Positions 11,723 through 23,338 of a DNA stretch of 64,000 bases are shown here, one piece after another (within the stretch, counting starts at the first letter, position 1; each line of letters starts with the position of its first letter). This stretch comes from a virus, in the IMG/VR virus record IMGVR_UViG_3300045988_095842. The stretch is one strand, 5' to 3'. Below the pieces are notes generated by a model. That model had not been told where the DNA came from and ran no database searches. It saw only the letters and a list, made by a program, of their open reading frames with translations. The position numbers and the translations under genes were made by a program.

Positions 11723-11816
11723 AAAGACTCCTTTCTTCGCTTGCCCGATACTAGGTAAAAGGCCTATCCCTTACCCGCAACTATATAATAGCATATCTTA
11801 CGTAATATGTAAATAG

Positions 11817-13523: not shown

Positions 13524-13924
13524 TACACCACTCCAAGCTCCTTGCGCTTCCGTTCCCTGTCAAGATGCTTGGCCTCTTCGTCCGTTACTACCTCGAGCTT
13601 TCCACACTCGTTGTAACCTGTTTCGCAGTCGCCGTTTCCTCCAAGCTCTCTATACGGGGCATACAGGTAATTCAGGTTGGTCTTTTCTCTCGTGGTGATT
13701 GCTCCGCGCTCAAGGATCTTGTCCGTAAGATACAGGATCTTGTCGTGCTCAAGGCCAAGGATCGCACGGCTCTGCGCACTCTGATTGGCCTCTTTCTTTT
13801 CATTTTTCTTGTCATGCCGCTGGATCAGGTATACGATCAGCCCGGTTCCACCGGAACCGACTATTCCTGTTACTACGGCTGTTGCTAGTGCTAGCACTTC
13901 TGGAGTCATCGTCCCTCCCCCCAT
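13523..13924 (-). CDS. Single-TM lysis-cassette membrane protein
   Basis: N-terminal TM ALATAVVTGIVGSGGTGLIVYLI; TAATG coupling with upstream small ORF. Confidence 0.6.
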   Translation of the reverse strand: MGGGTMTPEVLALATAVVTGIVGSGGTGLIVYLIQRHDKKNEKKEANQSAQSRAILGLEHDKILYLTDKILERGAITTREKTNLNYLYAPYRELGGNGDCETGYNECGKLEVVTDEEAKHLDRERKRKELGVV

Positions 13925-17917: not shown

Positions 17918-17938
17918 CTTCCCTCCTTTCTTTCCATC

Positions 17939-17964
17939 AAAAAAGAGGCCCTTGTGAGGCCTCT
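17939..17964 (-). terminator. Rho-independent terminator directly after the DUF4041 gene, just upstream of the J gene start
   Basis: AGAGGCC-n7-GGCCTCT followed on minus strand by T6. Confidence 0.7.
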
Positions 17965-17975
17965 GGTTACCTGTT

Positions 17976-19262
17976 TCAATTTTTTTGTTGCTCTCGCATT
18001 TTCAGCGATTGCCGGTACTGCTCAGCCGGTGCAATGTACGTAAAATCTGGTGTACCATCAAAATTCTCGTGCACCACCTTCTCGATCTCTTTAAGAGATA
18101 CCCGGAAAAACTCTCGTCGCTGATTCACGAGATTCAGCTTTCTGTCCGCAAATGCATTGTGCAGCGCCGCCTCCAGCTTCGGTGCGTCCTTCGAAAAAAT
18201 CATTGCATGGATATCGAAATCGAACGGAACAGATGCATCTCCGAGCTCATCCACACGATCTTCCGGAACAAGGCGTCTCGTCATACCAATCTTATAGACA
18301 TTCTCACCGAACGCCCCAATATTGGAAATCACATATACATACCCGGCTTTCTGATTCGCCTCGCGGTAGTCCACATCCTTGAACTCCTTGTCAATCTTTT
18401 TAAGCTGATTTTCAAGTTCTTCCTTCTTTGCTGCCAAGGCTGCCTGTTCTTCCTGCGGTGCTTCTTTGATTTGCATCTTGAGTTGCTTCAGAGCGTTTTG
18501 ATAATGCTTCTGTTCTTTCTCCAGTTTCTTACGCTCTTCCTCAATTTCCCTGGCAAGCTTCTGCTCTTCACGCAGTCTCGCTCTGGCCTCTTTCTGCTCT
18601 TCCTTCTCTTCTTGCTTCTTTTCCTGGTACTCAAAAGCAAGATACAGCTCTTCAAGCTTTAGCTGATAGTAATCGGAAGTAATGCGAATCGACATGATTT
18701 CTCCAAGCTTCGAGATAGCATCTCTGGATCTCTCAATTTTCTTTTCGCTTGCTTCCAGATTACTGTACCGCACATGCTCTATAGCATCGTCACACTCTGC
18801 ATTGAAGGCACGAAGAAGCAACTTTTGCGTGTCGGCGACCATCTTCTTTCCTTTTCGCACATCACCATTGACCGACCACGAAGCGATCCCGGTAACAGCA
18901 GACCCATCTCGTATCATGTCTTTCTGCTCAGCACGTATGCCAAGGAGTTTTGCTTTATACTCTTCAGAATGCATAAACGGATAGTGCGGAGTATACAAGC
19001 CAAAACTCTGGAGAAGTACTTCGTCACGAGTTTCTACAAGCTCATCCTTGACTCCTTCCAGTTCTGCATTTTTAGCATCAATTTCGCTTTGTATTGCATT
19101 GCATGCATCCTTGAGCTTGTTGTACTGCGCAGTAGCCTTTTCAACTTCGCCATTTACTCTGGCAAGCTCTTCCTCAAGAGCAATAACCTTTTTGCCATCA
19201 TCTGGCAAAAGCTCGCGCAAACGCTCAATTTCCTTCTTTTCTTTAAATCCGAACAGTGACAT
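17976..19262 (-). CDS. DUF4041 + T5orf172/MUG113 (GIY-YIG-like) domain protein; moron
   Basis: LQSFGLYTPHYPFMHSEEYKAKLLGIRAEQKDMI..LLLRAFNAECD (DUF4041-like), coiled coil, GYVYVISN..VYKIGMTRRLVPEDRVDELG...EFFRV (T5orf172-like). Confidence 0.75.
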   Translation of the reverse strand: MSLFGFKEKKEIERLRELLPDDGKKVIALEEELARVNGEVEKATAQYNKLKDACNAIQSEIDAKNAELEGVKDELVETRDEVLLQSFGLYTPHYPFMHSEEYKAKLLGIRAEQKDMIRDGSAVTGIASWSVNGDVRKGKKMVADTQKLLLRAFNAECDDAIEHVRYSNLEASEKKIERSRDAISKLGEIMSIRITSDYYQLKLEELYLAFEYQEKKQEEKEEQKEARARLREEQKLAREIEEERKKLEKEQKHYQNALKQLKMQIKEAPQEEQAALAAKKEELENQLKKIDKEFKDVDYREANQKAGYVYVISNIGAFGENVYKIGMTRRLVPEDRVDELGDASVPFDFDIHAMIFSKDAPKLEAALHNAFADRKLNLVNQRREFFRVSLKEIEKVVHENFDGTPDFTYIAPAEQYRQSLKMREQQKN

Positions 19263-19373
19263 GATTTTATCTCCCCCATAGTGATGTCATATATCAATGT
19301 ACAATATAATATCACCACTTGGCAGATTTATCAGAGCTATTGCCGGGAATCTTATTAGTAGCAAATTATATAC

Positions 19374-19667
19374 TTATACCGGATGCGGATTCTGATAGTA
19401 AACTCTTACAATAATGTGGTATTTCTGTGAGCATGACGTGTTGAGATGAATATGATTATTCTGAGTTCTATTAATAATGCACACCATAGCATTTTCCCAT
19501 GTAGTTACTGGATAAGCTAAGACAAGTTCTATCCCAGTAGCTTGAATAAAAACATTATTGTCATAACTTAGTGCAATATCATTATCCTTATCTTTGGTCA
19601 AATATACTTGACCAAGATCTAGATCAATGTGCTTTACCCCCCCCGGTTGGCAATTATAAAATGGCAT
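19374..19667 (-). CDS. Small cassette C (MPFYNCQPGGVK..), in frame through a G8 tract
   Basis: RBS AAGGAG inside end of cassette B; N-terminus paralogous to cassettes A and B. Confidence 0.55.
   Translation of the reverse strand: MPFYNCQPGGVKHIDLDLGQVYLTKDKDNDIALSYDNNVFIQATGIELVLAYPVTTWENAMVCIINRTQNNHIHLNTSCSQKYHIIVRVYYQNPHPV
19637..19644 (-). repeat. G8 homopolymer (minus strand) in codons 8-11 of cassette C
   Basis: CCG GGG GGG GTA read directly. Confidence 0.9.
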
Positions 19668-19670
19668 AAT

Positions 19671-19979
19671 TTACTCCTTCGGAAAACAAACAAAGTTTCC
19701 CTTACTGTCATATAAAAAGTCATTGCTTGTTGATACATAAAGATACGTATTATCATGAGAAACGCTCAAGTTTGATGTCTTAACATTTCCGTTCGGCCAT
19801 CCCATTCCACAGTGTGACCCGTTGGCCATGTTAATTCCCCACGTAGCTTTCTTTGCAAATTCCTCGTATTAATCTTTATAGTTGAATTTGCCACTATGAC
19901 CATTGTTGTACATGCTAAAACTTTTAACAATTATTTCTGTTTCTTTCTTTCCTCCACCATTTGCTGAAAAGAACGGCAT
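19671..19979 (-). pseudogene. Small cassette B (MPFFSANGGGKK..) with in-frame TAA at 19869-19871
   Basis: RBS AAGGAGG, ATG 19979; 36 codons, TAA, then 65 more in-frame codons to TAA 19671-19673. Confidence 0.5.
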
Positions 19980-19989
19980 AATACCTCCT

Positions 19990-20282
19990 TTAAGAAGGAA
20001 TATATGCAACACAAAAGCTCACTGTATAGAATGGGGCTGAGTTCGTCCAAGATCCTCCGCAGGAAATAGTGACACTGTTGCCACTGAGAGAACAAGAACA
20101 ATTCATCTGTTGCCCGTTTCCAGTATTGTCTTGCTTAAAACTCGTAATGCCCGCTGCGATTGGCGTATATCCTTCAAGTGATACATCTATCTGTTTTGTA
20201 TATGGCTTATAGGTGCGACCAATATCAAAGGTCTTTGTTACATGCTTTATTTTACCCCCCCACGGCACGGATAGAAGCTCAT
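19990..20282 (-). CDS. Small cassette A; coupled ATG (20282) is out of frame with the long ORF because of a G7 tract
   Basis: TAATG coupling with XkdX-like gene; ATG AGC TTC TAT CCG TGC CGT GGG GGG GTA AAA TAA; one extra G joins it to ORF 19990..20268. Confidence 0.5.
20255..20261 (-). repeat. G7 homopolymer (minus strand) near 5' end of cassette A
   Basis: Seven C on plus strand, read directly. Confidence 0.9.
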
Positions 20283-20416
20283 TATGCCAGCTCCTCTCCG
20301 AACAGCAGAAGGTACTGCTCTCTCACAGCATTACGATACTGCTCATCTACATCCTCGATAGTCTTGCTTCCTCTGTAAATACACCTTACTAAAATCCTTG
20401 CTTTTGCTTTGGTCAT
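20282..20416 (-). CDS. XkdX-like small tail-fibre-associated protein (44 aa, hand-called)
   Basis: MTKAKARILVRCIYRGSKTIEDVDEQYRNAVREQYLLLFGEELA; RBS AAGGAGGG; size, position and ..T.EDV....Y..L.GEE pattern as XkdX. Confidence 0.5.
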   Translation of the reverse strand: MTKAKARILVRCIYRGSKTIEDVDEQYRNAVREQYLLLFGEELA

Positions 20417-20429
20417 TTCGATACCCTCC

Positions 20430-20747
20430 TTATGCGATCAGATCAGCCACAGCGTCCTCAAGGTCGCTTACTCTCTGCTCCAGAACTTCCTTCTCTGTCA
20501 GGTTTCTGACTGTAAAGCGCGCCACGATCTTACCGTCCGTACCAAGCTCTACCTGCGCTCCGGTATATACAGCTTCGGTGATGGGCTCACCATCAAATGT
20601 GCCACCGATGAGGTTGTCTGCTACTTCGAACTGGGCTTTGATCGCGTCCAGTGCCGCAAATGTGGTTGCATCAAAAACCAAAGTGTTGATGGTGGACGTG
20701 TCTCTGAAATCGAATGTCTTCCCGTTCTTGAACTTGAGTGTCTTCAT
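20430..20747 (-). CDS. hypothetical fibre-module protein
   Basis: 105-aa ORF after fibre genes (XkdW-like position). Confidence 0.55.
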   Translation of the reverse strand: MKTLKFKNGKTFDFRDTSTINTLVFDATTFAALDAIKAQFEVADNLIGGTFDGEPITEAVYTGAQVELGTDGKIVARFTVRNLTEKEVLEQRVSDLEDAVADLIA

Positions 20748-20760
20748 GTTTTTTCTCCTT

Positions 20761-21126
20761 TTAATTTCTTACTGTGATGCACGCATCAAATGCACTTTTC
20801 TGCGCATCAAATGTCACTGTGCAAGTTCCTGCTGTTGCTGTTACGTTTGTTGGCGAAATTCCGTAAACCGTCGTCCACGGAGTTATCAGGGAATTTTCCG
20901 TAATGCTCGCATCTTTGAAAGTCAGTGTCCCGCCGGCCGCGGTGAGAGACTGCGCAGGAAGAAGTTTTTCCGTTTTTGCGTCTACACTCTTTAGTGCATC
21001 CGCGCTTGGCAGCTTTCTCACGAGACTCGTTGCACTTTTGATCTGGTCTAATGCAAGCACATTTTTAAATACGCAGTCCAAGATATTGCCGATTTTTACT
21101 TTTGCCAAGGTTACCTCCTTTCTCAA
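20761..21126 (-). CDS. hypothetical fibre-module protein (beta-rich)
   Basis: 121-aa ORF; 4-nt overlap with upstream gene. Confidence 0.55.
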   Translation of the reverse strand: MRKEVTLAKVKIGNILDCVFKNVLALDQIKSATSLVRKLPSADALKSVDAKTEKLLPAQSLTAAGGTLTFKDASITENSLITPWTTVYGISPTNVTATAGTCTVTFDAQKSAFDACITVRN

Positions 21127-21311
21127 AAAGTAATGTTTATGTCTCCATCATCTGTCAACTCAAAAGAAAAAGTTCTTCCATCCGGAGTTTCTGCATATAG
21201 ATTTCCGTCATCATCTGCCGTCAGCGTAAATACTCCGTATGGGATCTCTGCCCGAATTTTATCTATTGCATGTTGCAGACCTTGTTTGTTGGTATATCTG
21301 TTTTCAGCCAT
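21123..21311 (-). CDS. hypothetical protein
   Basis: 62-aa ORF in fibre module. Confidence 0.5.
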   Translation of the reverse strand: MAENRYTNKQGLQHAIDKIRAEIPYGVFTLTADDDGNLYAETPDGRTFSFELTDDGDINITF

Positions 21312-21326
21312 AACGGAGTACCTCCG

Positions 21327-21980
21327 TTACGTAAACATTGCATCGATTTCTTCGTTGCTGATGGGAACAAGCTCAGACTTTTTTACGTATCCGGACATAT
21401 CCACATCGGTACTACCGATCTTCTCAAAAGTCTTTAGTTCTTTAAGCCAGATGTACTCATCGTGAGAGTCTCCAGCTCCATGAGCGTGAGGAATGAGATA
21501 AATCACGCCCTCTTTTCCGGTTTCCGGGAGGCTTTCCACTAGCGAGAAAGAGATCCCTGTGAATCCCGCAATAGCAGCCGCAATTGCAGCCGCCATTTCT
21601 GTTTTTGTCGGCGCGTCAGTGATTCCGTAGCCAGACAAGGTGTTTGACTTGTTAGCTTTTCCAGCGATGGCAGAAGCGACCGCCTTTCCATTTACCGGAG
21701 CCGTCCCGTCTGCTGCGTATGAGCTTGTAGTATTCGAGGCAGGGAGGGAAGTCGGCTTATTCTTTATCACGGCCCCGCCGCTCGTAGCATTCCAGTCCGC
21801 TTGTACATTGACCTGTGCACCGGCAGCAATTCCAGACAGCTTTGTTTTCTCGGCTGTTGTGTAGTCATTGGTGGAAAGTCCTTTTCCATCAGCCTTGTCC
21901 ACCTTTCCGCCAAGGAACTCCTTGATCTTTCCTACCACATAAGTTATGCCTGCCTTATCAACAAAGTTTGTATTTGCCAT
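21327..21980 (-). CDS. Tail fibre-like protein
   Basis: KGLSTNDYTTAEKTKLSGIAAGAQVN and LSGYGITDA motifs typical of phage fibre repeats. Confidence 0.65.
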   Translation of the reverse strand: MANTNFVDKAGITYVVGKIKEFLGGKVDKADGKGLSTNDYTTAEKTKLSGIAAGAQVNVQADWNATSGGAVIKNKPTSLPASNTTSSYAADGTAPVNGKAVASAIAGKANKSNTLSGYGITDAPTKTEMAAAIAAAIAGFTGISFSLVESLPETGKEGVIYLIPHAHGAGDSHDEYIWLKELKTFEKIGSTDVDMSGYVKKSELVPISNEEIDAMFT

Positions 21981-21993
21981 TCTTTATCCTTTC

Positions 21994-22296
21994 TTAAAAA
22001 AGCTGAGCCAGCCACTCTATCGGTATGGCATCATCTTTACTTACAGCGTCAACCTCATCTGGTGTGTACGTGGGCTTCTTGGCCTCTTTCGCCCAGTCGC
22101 TTACGGTCGGATCCGTTTCCTGCATGTCTCCCTGGATGATTTTTCCATTAAGAGTCGGTTTATTGGACAATGCATTATAGTCGCTTGTTCCTCCTGCATC
22201 GTCTACGTCCATCGTAAATCCAGGAGTAGGAGACACATCTCCGTATAGCTCTATATGCTGTGTGTCTCCACGAATTTCAAAATCAAATTTATCCAT
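21994..22296 (-). CDS. Fibre-associated protein
   Basis: YNALSNKPTLNG and ETDPTVSDWAKEAKKPTYTPDEV motifs recurrent in phage fibres. Confidence 0.55.
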   Translation of the reverse strand: MDKFDFEIRGDTQHIELYGDVSPTPGFTMDVDDAGGTSDYNALSNKPTLNGKIIQGDMQETDPTVSDWAKEAKKPTYTPDEVDAVSKDDAIPIEWLAQLF

Positions 22297-22615
22297 TTAA
22301 GCTTTCCTCATTAAGTATGTCTCCATTGACATAATCCCTTACAATGGATGTTCCTTTGACCTCTCCATGCTCCGTCCCATCATCAATCAGCACCTTGACT
22401 TGTACTCTCACCTCTCCCAGCGAAAGCTTCACTGTTTGTTCTGGCGTAAAAACCACCGTGCCGACACCGTTCTGATCGAACGTAATTTCCTGATCAATTT
22501 GTACTACTCGCGGATACTCCTGCTTGATCGTGATGACAGCCTTTTTGATCTTTGTCATGTCAAGACCGTCACTATGCAGCGTAACCGTCTTTTTTTCTGT
22601 CGTTCCTCTTCTCAT
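22289..22615 (-). CDS. hypothetical fibre-module protein
   Basis: 108-aa ORF, overlapping neighbours. Confidence 0.55.
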   Translation of the reverse strand: MRRGTTEKKTVTLHSDGLDMTKIKKAVITIKQEYPRVVQIDQEITFDQNGVGTVVFTPEQTVKLSLGEVRVQVKVLIDDGTEHGEVKGTSIVRDYVNGDILNEESLNG

Positions 22616-22621
22616 TACTTA

Positions 22622-23338
22622 TCAAAGCTCCGTGTACAGATCTCCGGTCACCTCGTCAAAAGTGACGGATGCAGCCTTTATAGTTCCATCTTCTGCTACC
22701 GAAATCGTGCTTCCGTCTGGCTTTACAATTCCGACCTTACTTCCCGTTGCAATGCCAACATCAGTGACATTCTCAACCTTTTTTACGGCATCTTCGGCCT
22801 TCTTATCGGTTGATGCCAGATTCTTCACAACCTCATTCACAGCCTTAACAAGATCCGTCTTTTCAGCGGTTGTCAGTTCCGTAAGCGTTCCGACGTTTTC
22901 CAAGCCTTTATCAGCCTTAGTCAGCACCCAGTTGATCGCAGTAACAAGGTTGTCTTTCGGAGTTGTCGCAAGCTGATCCAAATGGCCTTCTACATCTTTT
23001 GCACGCTGCACTTCCTCCGTAATTTTATGAGTATTATCACCAACAACTTTGGAGAGCGCATTGAACTTGCTTACAGCAGAATCAGCAGTCTCATTTGCTG
23101 TGGTTATTCTTCCATCATGTTCACTCAGCGTTTGATCTATTTCCGTATCCTTTTGGGAGATCTTTTTAATTGCTTCATGAATACTTACAATGTTTTCGTC
23201 CTGTGCTGCATCATTTTTAGCAAGGACAATAATCTTGGCAGTCGCATCTACAAGAGATTGCGCCGTCTCTTTGTCCATGATCAGAAATTCAGTTTTTACA
23301 CCATTTACTTCGATCTGGATGGTGTCAATTTTTGCCAT
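22622..23338 (-). CDS. Coiled-coil fibre protein
   Basis: Helical repeats; LTELTTAEKTDLVKAVNEV motif common near N-termini of Firmicutes phage fibres. Confidence 0.6.
   Translation of the reverse strand: MAKIDTIQIEVNGVKTEFLIMDKETAQSLVDATAKIIVLAKNDAAQDENIVSIHEAIKKISQKDTEIDQTLSEHDGRITTANETADSAVSKFNALSKVVGDNTHKITEEVQRAKDVEGHLDQLATTPKDNLVTAINWVLTKADKGLENVGTLTELTTAEKTDLVKAVNEVVKNLASTDKKAEDAVKKVENVTDVGIATGSKVGIVKPDGSTISVAEDGTIKAASVTFDEVTGDLYTEL

Follow-up and report, generated by a model that had tools for sequence, protein, structure and literature searches.

The 64-kb window analyzed here (the whole stretch of 64,000 nucleotides taken from IMG/VR virus record IMGVR_UViG_3300045988_095842) encodes on its minus strand, downstream of fibre-like genes, three short cassettes, A, B and C, which belong to a family of phage genes that share a leader and in many cases carry a run of G residues within it. 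Comparison with related metagenomic phage loci showed that these tracts are polymorphic in length on otherwise identical haplotypes and that two tracts in the same locus switch independently. From these comparisons of sequence we consider it probable that the poly-G runs are hypermutable contingency tracts that switch the cassettes on and off by slippage at the DNA level.

The array in the window is anchored by a gene encoding a 44-amino-acid (44-aa) protein, here called X44, and cassettes A, B and C occupy slots 2, 3 and 4 of an arrangement of four slots that recurs in related loci. A tract of n G residues is written Gn, and a cassette is called ON when its leader and body are in the same frame and OFF when they are not. 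The features of the region are the following.

20282..20416, minus strand: X44, the 44-aa gene that anchors the cassette array (open reading frame [ORF]).
20291..20299, minus strand: Shine-Dalgarno-like sequence GGAGAGGAG, 8 nt 5' of the cassette A ATG (read from the sequence).
20247..20282, minus strand: leader of cassette A, MSFYPCRGGVK followed by a stop, OFF state (read from the sequence).
20255..20261, minus strand: poly-G tract of cassette A, G7 (one G short of the in-frame G8).
19990..20268, minus strand: body ORF of cassette A, 92 codons, -1 frame, intact (ORF and allele comparison).
19671..19979, minus strand: cassette B, slot 3, with the tract-free leader MPFFSANGGGK, inactivated in the window (ORF and relatives).
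19869..19871, minus strand: in-frame TAA of cassette B (alignment with loci L001 to L005).
19374..19667, minus strand: cassette C, slot 4, in frame (ORF).
19637..19644, minus strand: poly-G tract of cassette C, G8, ON state (run count).
17918..23324, minus strand: the 5.4-kb block of fibre-like genes, X44, cassettes A to C and a DUF4041/T5orf172 gene.

Cassette A as a whole spans 19990-20282. Its ATG (20282-20280) overlaps the TAA of X44 (20284-20282) in the sequence TAATG, and its codons read ATG AGC TTC TAT CCG TGC CGT GGG GGG GTA AAA TAA, with the stop at 20249-20247, so that translation would terminate after 11 codons; one additional G in the tract would join the ORF at 19990-20268 to this ATG. 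The tracts of cassettes A and C fall at codons 8-10 and lie inside the ORF. Cassette B starts at 19979, writes its Gly-Gly-Gly as GGT GGA GGA and encounters the TAA at codon 37. A separate Shine-Dalgarno sequence serves each of the cassettes, which are tightly packed or overlapping, with 0-10 nt between them. The G+C content is 34-36% over 19200-19950, compared with 45-50% in both flanks. A first-pass annotation of the window had given these cassette coordinates, tracts and stops, had proposed that one extra G would fuse cassette A to its body ORF and had described the block as AT rich; all of this was borne out when the sequence was read again.

Runs of this kind are otherwise depleted in the window. 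The tracts of cassettes A and C are the only G or C runs of at least 7 in the 64 kb, and C runs of at least 6 number 3, against approximately 18 expected from base composition. In the 21 long genes of the window, GGG is the rarest Gly codon (14.5%), and GGG-GGG occurs in 0 of 46 Gly-Gly pairs. The poly-G pattern exceeds chance, and the tract looks selected. A further run, a G6 at 13917-13922 (minus strand), lies in the Shine-Dalgarno region (GGGGGGAGGGACGATG) of a gene for a 128-aa membrane protein immediately before the holin; its counterpart in L001 (around 11746-11750) is G5, and it may be a third length-variable G run, one located in a ribosome-binding site rather than in an ORF.

Protein searches returned only a handful of clusters per cassette, and an exhaustive phmmer search of cassette A against 1.84 billion representatives found six real relatives, so that the family is specific to one lineage. 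P0052 and P0055, the two long matches from this search, proved to be repeat proteins and were discarded as spurious. The encoding contigs were fetched and three collections were scanned for the conserved leader DNA TTYTATCCGTGYCGTGSGGGG, which yielded approximately 140 family members of 85-150 codons in approximately 65 related metagenomic phage loci. The members share a leader of about 10 residues, M-(P/S)-F-Y-P-(C/A)-(R/K)-G-G-G, followed by a body that differs from cassette to cassette, and they stand in the fixed order slot 1, X44, slot 2, slot 3, slot 4.

Slot 1: leader MPFYPCRGG, with poly-G.
Slot 2: leader MSFYPCRGGG, with poly-G; the start overlaps the upstream stop; cassette A in the window.
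Slot 3: leader M(P/S)FYPAKGG, written GGT GGA GGA and free of poly-G; cassette B in the window.
Slot 4: leader MPFY(P/R)C(R)GG, with poly-G; cassette C in the window.

Of 47 related loci, 38 contained X44, in every case immediately ahead of a slot-2 cassette. The cassettes had been described as paralogous, a term that fits their leaders (residues 1-21) and does not extend to their bodies: alignments among A, B and C by BLASTP and hhalign were confined to the first 11-21 residues, and neither program detected similarity between the bodies. Single linkage joined 66 of the 92 unique members, including those of the A and B types, and left the C type separate. Identical bodies were found behind different leaders and in different slots across loci; one body follows a leader with poly-G in L018 and one free of a tract in L042, and the single cassette of L008 combines an A-type start with a C body, its tract being broken up as CAACAAGGGTTGG. 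Because the same body can stand behind different leaders and in different slots, the leader DNA appears to act also as a patch for recombination.

The lengths of the tracts varied widely among these loci. Orthologues of cassette A carry G6, G7, G8, G9 or G10, with G9 in L001, L004, L005 and L015. The exact body DNA of cassette A in the window occurs also with G8, in L012 and P0017, and one A body was recovered with G7 in 14 contigs, with G8 in 5 contigs and with G9 in 3 contigs. Cassette C has G9 and is OFF in P0056, P0059 and L047; in L047, which is 94.5% identical to the window, cassette A is ON (G8) and cassette C is OFF (G9), the reverse of the state in the window. A single haplotype was recovered from 14 independent samples that were 99.65-100% identical over 1,200 bp (0-2 mismatches), with gaps at the two tracts only. 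Its slot 2/slot 4 states were G7/G8, G7/G7, G7/G10, G8/G7, G8/G8, G9/G9 and G9/G7, and all four on/off combinations therefore exist on one background. L032 and L033 are 99.58% identical over 2.8 kb, with a single indel, of 2 nt, inside a tract, and the sister runs SRR22034728 and SRR22034729 have G7 and G9, respectively. Tract invariance among relatives, which the first-pass annotation had named beforehand as an argument against a switch, was not seen, as lengths differ on near-identical haplotypes. Switching may be frequent within one population, as the sister runs and some contig ends hint. Three full-length contigs (L028, L057 and L068) break off inside a poly-G tract, and several more do so no farther than about 40 nt from such a tract; breaks in the assembly graph at a site that is heterogeneous within the sample would look like this.

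Reading frames were counted over 92 unique sequences from the first 45 loci, 63 with poly-G and 29 tract free. The poly-G members were in frame in 19 cases, in the +1 frame in 14 and in the -1 frame in 30, which places 44/63 out of frame, whereas all 29 tract-free members were in frame (Fisher p = 1.7e-11); the 27 tract-free genes in slot 3 were never shifted. Every member had exactly one long open frame 3' of the tract. Slot 2 was ON in 17 of 34 unique sequences, slot 1 in 2 of 13 and slot 4 in 2 of 17 (first sample), with slot 4 being ON in 5 of 12 complete copies of the well-sampled haplotype; selection, an equilibrium of tract lengths or sampling may lie behind these differences between slots. 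Of the 39 distinct A orthologues in the protein collection, 23 were ON, and the gene calls of the others fell in the -1 frame (10) or the +1 frame (6). In both wrong frames a stop was reached at a median of 2 codons after the tract, compared with 9.5 at control positions (p = 2.5e-23), and in 41/63 a TAA or TAG followed the tract directly. With stops placed so close to the tract, the arrangement looks like a selected "clean off." One A orthologue, P0010 (a cluster of 20 sequences), has the leader MSFYPCRGGVGK and is in frame by means of an inserted Val-Gly instead of G8, which suggests a route back to ON from a G7 allele that does not involve the tract.

The bodies beyond these tracts are under purifying selection, with ratios of nonsynonymous to synonymous substitution (dN/dS) of 0.05-0.4. 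The A bodies comprised 12 unique alleles, all of 261 nt and free of indels and stops, with dN/dS of 0.1-0.4; the comparison of the window (G7) with L001 (G9), both OFF in the consensus, gave 0.13. Two OFF slot-4 alleles gave dN/dS of 0.05 at a synonymous divergence (dS) of 1.4, at which synonymous sites are saturated. Groups in which all members were OFF had dN/dS of 0.05-0.3, and cassette C compared with its relatives had dN/dS of 0.31-0.55.

Cassette B requires a separate explanation. The window and L006, which are the same strain, lack 9 bp (CTTTGATTC) relative to L001 to L005, and the junction reads TAA; all other B orthologues are intact at 103-105 aa. The constitutive slot has therefore been lost here, leaving cassette C as the sole in-frame cassette in the window consensus. 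The in-frame stop of cassette B had been listed as possible phase variation, and it is instead a strain-specific deletion; the broader proposal of slipped-strand switches on alternative tail-module proteins stands as far as tract lengths vary and shift the frame and does not hold for this stop. Recoding of the TAA in cassette B was ruled out, since TAA ends neighboring genes and the relatives show the 9-bp deletion at that position. A purine repeat, AAGAAAGAAA, lies just after the B leader (window ~19945-19960); it has a 3-bp deletion in L002 and L003 (54-100), and one database variant, P0009, is frameshifted at it, so this repeat may be a second, weaker slippage-prone site in the otherwise "constitutive" slot.

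We propose the following scheme. In three of the four slots the Gly-Gly-Gly of the leader is encoded by 7-9 consecutive G's, which would serve as the slip site; polymerase slippage would add or remove a G, and the cassette would flip between in-frame (G8 or G5) and out-of-frame states, the latter ending within about 2 codons. Slot 3, with GGT GGA GGA, is in frame in all cases and is the constitutive slot. In the consensus of the window, cassette A is OFF (G7), cassette B dead (the 9-bp deletion) and cassette C ON (G8). The proteins would be late tail-associated adhesin or tip modules that dock by the shared leader and compete for one site, and progeny differing in adsorption specificity would constitute a form of bet-hedging.

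The setting of the cassettes is that of a phage tail region. The window encodes an integrase, a portal, a terminase, a sheath-like protein and a baseplate hub, and it is a temperate phage with a contractile tail. Among cultured phages, Faecalibacterium phage FP_Brigit is closest to it (57% identity in the major capsid protein), and the family probably resides, at the distal end of a tail-fibre-like module, in temperate human-gut phages related to FP_Brigit. Two baseplate genes, gp25-like and J-like, adjoin each other in FP_Brigit (L046 11299-13082) and are 5.4 kb apart in the window (17918-23324); the orthologues are 37% (gp25-like) and 40% (J-like) identical, and the gp25-like protein has 174 aa in the window versus 121 aa in FP_Brigit, with about 65 extra C-terminal residues. 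The tail half of FP_Brigit contains neither the leader motif nor G runs of at least 7, and FP_Brigit carries diversity-generating retroelement genes (Avd and reverse transcriptase) after its fibre gene. In some relatives the fibre-plus-cassette module lies just before the lysis genes. The label "XkdX-like" (PF09693), which had been given to X44, could not be confirmed, since X44 had no Pfam match at E values up to 10 and scored 18.9 bits against the NCBIfam model CD1375_fam, below its cut-off of 22.5.

Directly after cassette C and within the baseplate operon, a gene for a 428-aa protein with DUF4041 (SNIPE in newer Pfam naming) and T5orf172/MUG113 domains lies at 17976-19262 on the minus strand. 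Its own signals are a promoter-like site with an extended -10 TG (19334-19306) and an intrinsic terminator (17964-17944). The gene is absent from L008 and from the relatives with cassettes before the lysis genes and looks like a self-contained accessory or defense gene. In L048 to L059 the corresponding position, about 1.1 kb downstream of the cassettes, is occupied not by this gene but by an opposite-strand BrnT/BrnA toxin-antitoxin pair. A hotspot for accessory genes seems to lie just behind the array.

The cassettes may be interchangeable tail-associated binding modules with one docking site, because they lie in a late fibre and baseplate operon, are coupled to X44 and have a shared leader on unrelated, beta-rich bodies. 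The AlphaFold2 model of cassette A (mean predicted local distance difference test score [pLDDT], 78.9) consists of six beta strands preceded by a leader that is disordered. A Foldseek search with this model gave weak matches to H-type lectins, the R-pyocin fibre foot, spore-appendage subunits and phage tail-fibre tips; the best PDB match was 3wmp (E value, 7.6e-3; template modeling [TM] score, 0.47), the R1 pyocin fibre had a TM score of 0.55, and the best BFVD match had an E value of 1.8e-3. These matches were taken as a pointer toward a putative role as small beta-sandwich adhesins of the tail fibre, and not as proof of kinship with any of these folds.

A number of observations weigh against this interpretation, as to both the switch and the function. 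The tract lengths are those of consensus sequences. G7 is the commonest state, found in 25/63 unique poly-G sequences, and among the first 92 unique sequences, the members of slots 1 and 4 outside the C type of the window were in frame in only 2/28 (binomial p = 0.002), while these mostly out-of-frame slots are under strong constraint. Constraint combined with a rare in-frame state could mean that out-of-frame alleles are expressed by means of slippage in transcription or translation. As to function, Pfam, PHROGs and NCBIfam searches with A, B, C and 41 diverse members returned nothing credible, and sequence searches of the PDB with the family profile and two long members returned nothing below an E value of 0.1. 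The AlphaFold2 model of cassette C was unreliable (pLDDT, 57) and was left out of the fold search. The function proposed here draws on position and on weak fold matches (E values of approximately 2e-3 or worse and TM scores of approximately 0.5). Matches to Jacalin and MS_channel were rejected as not credible, each having an E value of about 5e-3 and each occurring in a single family member, and neither a blastn search with the region nor a tblastn search with cassette A found a match among 50,697 INPHARED phage records.

It is possible, although we think it unlikely, that the switch is real but that the proteins are intracellular or lysogeny-related accessories, involved in antidefense, superinfection exclusion or a similar activity, in a hotspot of accessory genes. 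The low G+C content of the block relative to its flanks, the adjoining DUF4041/T5orf172 gene with its own promoter-like site and terminator, the hypervariable bodies that are shuffled between slots and the lack of matches to families of structural proteins would all agree with such a role. However, the cassettes have no convincing promoter or terminator belonging to themselves and are instead translationally coupled to X44 and embedded in a late baseplate and fibre operon. The module also moves with fibre-like genes into different tail contexts, and the presence of one leader on bodies that are unrelated is easier to reconcile with a common docking site than with diverse intracellular targets.

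A second explanation, which we regard as rather improbable, concerns the tract itself. The G run could be a programmed site of RNA polymerase or ribosome slippage at which G7 is the normal low-level form, perhaps with a stoichiometric role, and differences in DNA length would then be tolerated noise. The predominance of G7 and the low dN/dS of the all-OFF groups would be expected under such a scheme; reasoning from the sequence, a P-site tRNA-Gly can re-pair perfectly within the G run after a -1 or +1 shift, and the stops directly after 41/63 tracts would pause ribosomes at the run. Against this, the frame relation is not conserved, the same gene being found to need a -1 shift, a +1 shift or no shift, and the lengths center on the in-frame G8 and not on one recoding state. 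The canonical X XXY YYZ phasing is lacking, there is no stable RNA structure downstream of the A tract (z = -0.15), and the downstream sequence varies between cassettes. Slippage at the level of DNA fits best because the lengths center on G8 with G7 and G9 on either side and because the frame relation is variable. Slippage in transcription or translation could nevertheless add leaky expression to the DNA-level switch and may even be an important route.

The possibility that the length differences are homopolymer errors of sequencing or assembly, with the true tracts all in frame, is very remote: homopolymers are error prone and the three contigs mentioned above end inside a tract, but the same allele was recovered with the same length in independent samples (G9 in L001, L004, L005 and L015; G7 of P0034 in 14 contigs), the differences are restricted to the tracts within 1.2 kb of otherwise identical sequence, none of the 27 tract-free slot-3 genes was shifted, and the stops right after the tract in both wrong frames indicate design. 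That cassettes A and B are decaying pseudogenes on the way to being lost is equally hard to credit, for although A is frameshifted and B has a premature stop in the window and L008 is down to a single cassette, the uninterrupted A alleles and their dN/dS values argue against decay, identical alleles exist in frame, signs of pseudogenes (dN/dS near 1, scattered indels or stops) were looked for across the orthologues and not seen, and only the B cassette of the window strain looks like a true loss. Switching by inversion or a shufflon was ruled out, since all cassettes are co-oriented.

Hypermutable poly-G tracts have been described in the receptor-binding-protein genes of Campylobacter Fletchervirus phages (Sorensen 2021, as cited in PMC10877375 and PMC11959909). 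The points of likeness to the cassettes are poly-G inside genes of the phage host-recognition region, a length that toggles the frame and several tracts per genome, which give rise to mixed progeny. The proteins, however, share no detectable sequence similarity (tblastn of cassette A against the 50,697 phage records), and unlike the lytic Campylobacter phages, the present phages are probably temperate gut phages related to FP_Brigit. Here the tract is also part of a leader that a whole array of short cassettes has in common, one slot being constitutive and tract free, and whereas the Fletchervirus tracts are in receptor-binding genes, the present cassettes are putative binding proteins.

Contingency loci with poly-A repeats have been reported in agt and rIIA of T2 and T4 (Gomez, Barrick and Waters, bioRxiv 10.1101/2025.10.21.683753). 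There, too, simple-sequence repeats lie in phage ORFs, and reversible frameshifts are interpreted as bet-hedging. The T2 and T4 repeats, however, consist of A and are dispersed over ordinary genes of every class, whereas those described here consist of G, always occupy the same codon position in a dedicated gene family and stand in a genome that is depleted of G/C runs elsewhere. In bacteria, 5'-proximal poly-G and poly-C contingency loci are found in Campylobacter capsule genes and in Neisseria, Haemophilus and Bordetella (e.g., PMC1891110 and PMC3025981). The cassettes resemble these in having the tract near the 5' end of an otherwise conserved ORF, with ON and OFF alleles among near-clonal genomes and most loci OFF at any time; they differ in being virus borne, in forming arrays with a common leader and in having immediate stops in both wrong frames.

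Other phages vary their tail proteins by different means. In Mu and P1, the invertible G and C segments switch phage tropism. As in these systems and in diversity-generating retroelements, the outcome here would be heritable stochastic variation of distal tail proteins, and the cassettes are similarly placed, at the end of the tail module. Unlike them, the cassettes are co-oriented and have neither a reverse transcriptase with a template repeat nor an invertase with inverted repeats. X44, with about 44 aa and a position directly after fibre-like genes, is in these respects like XkdW/XkdX of PBSX and the CD1375 family, small genes behind the tail-fibre gene in contractile-tail elements of Firmicutes; its membership is not established by the Pfam and CD1375_fam results given above, and we know of no cassette arrays described for these families. 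The principle of frame switching by poly-G in phages is known, and no description of an array of cassettes with a tract in the leader turned up in the literature searched. The distinctive layout here is the placement of the tract in the leader of a shuffled cassette array with one tract-free slot.

The leader may have a triple role, and we put this forward tentatively, as a possibility more than an expectation: it would be at once a docking peptide for unrelated beta-fold "heads" that compete for a single site on a baseplate-attached fibre, a poly-G slip site that turns each head on or off independently and a patch of homology for the shuffling of bodies among slots and phages, and together with the constitutive slot it could specify up to eight heritable, stochastically sampled adsorption states. 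If this is true, it would represent a cassette-based tropism switch unlike diversity-generating retroelements or invertible segments. The architecture lends itself to testing: the leader is defined, three slots can switch and one is constitutive, and public data already include natural ON and OFF alleles whose backgrounds are identical. Phage-encoded phase variation has been regarded as exceptional, having been described for Campylobacter phages and, very recently, T-even coliphages; with the present case it would also take in temperate phages of abundant human-gut commensals. If the cassettes are adhesins, they would have a bearing on the prediction of host range from consensus genomes, in which gene callers truncate or miss most of them, and they would help to explain how gut phages persist against hosts with variable surfaces.

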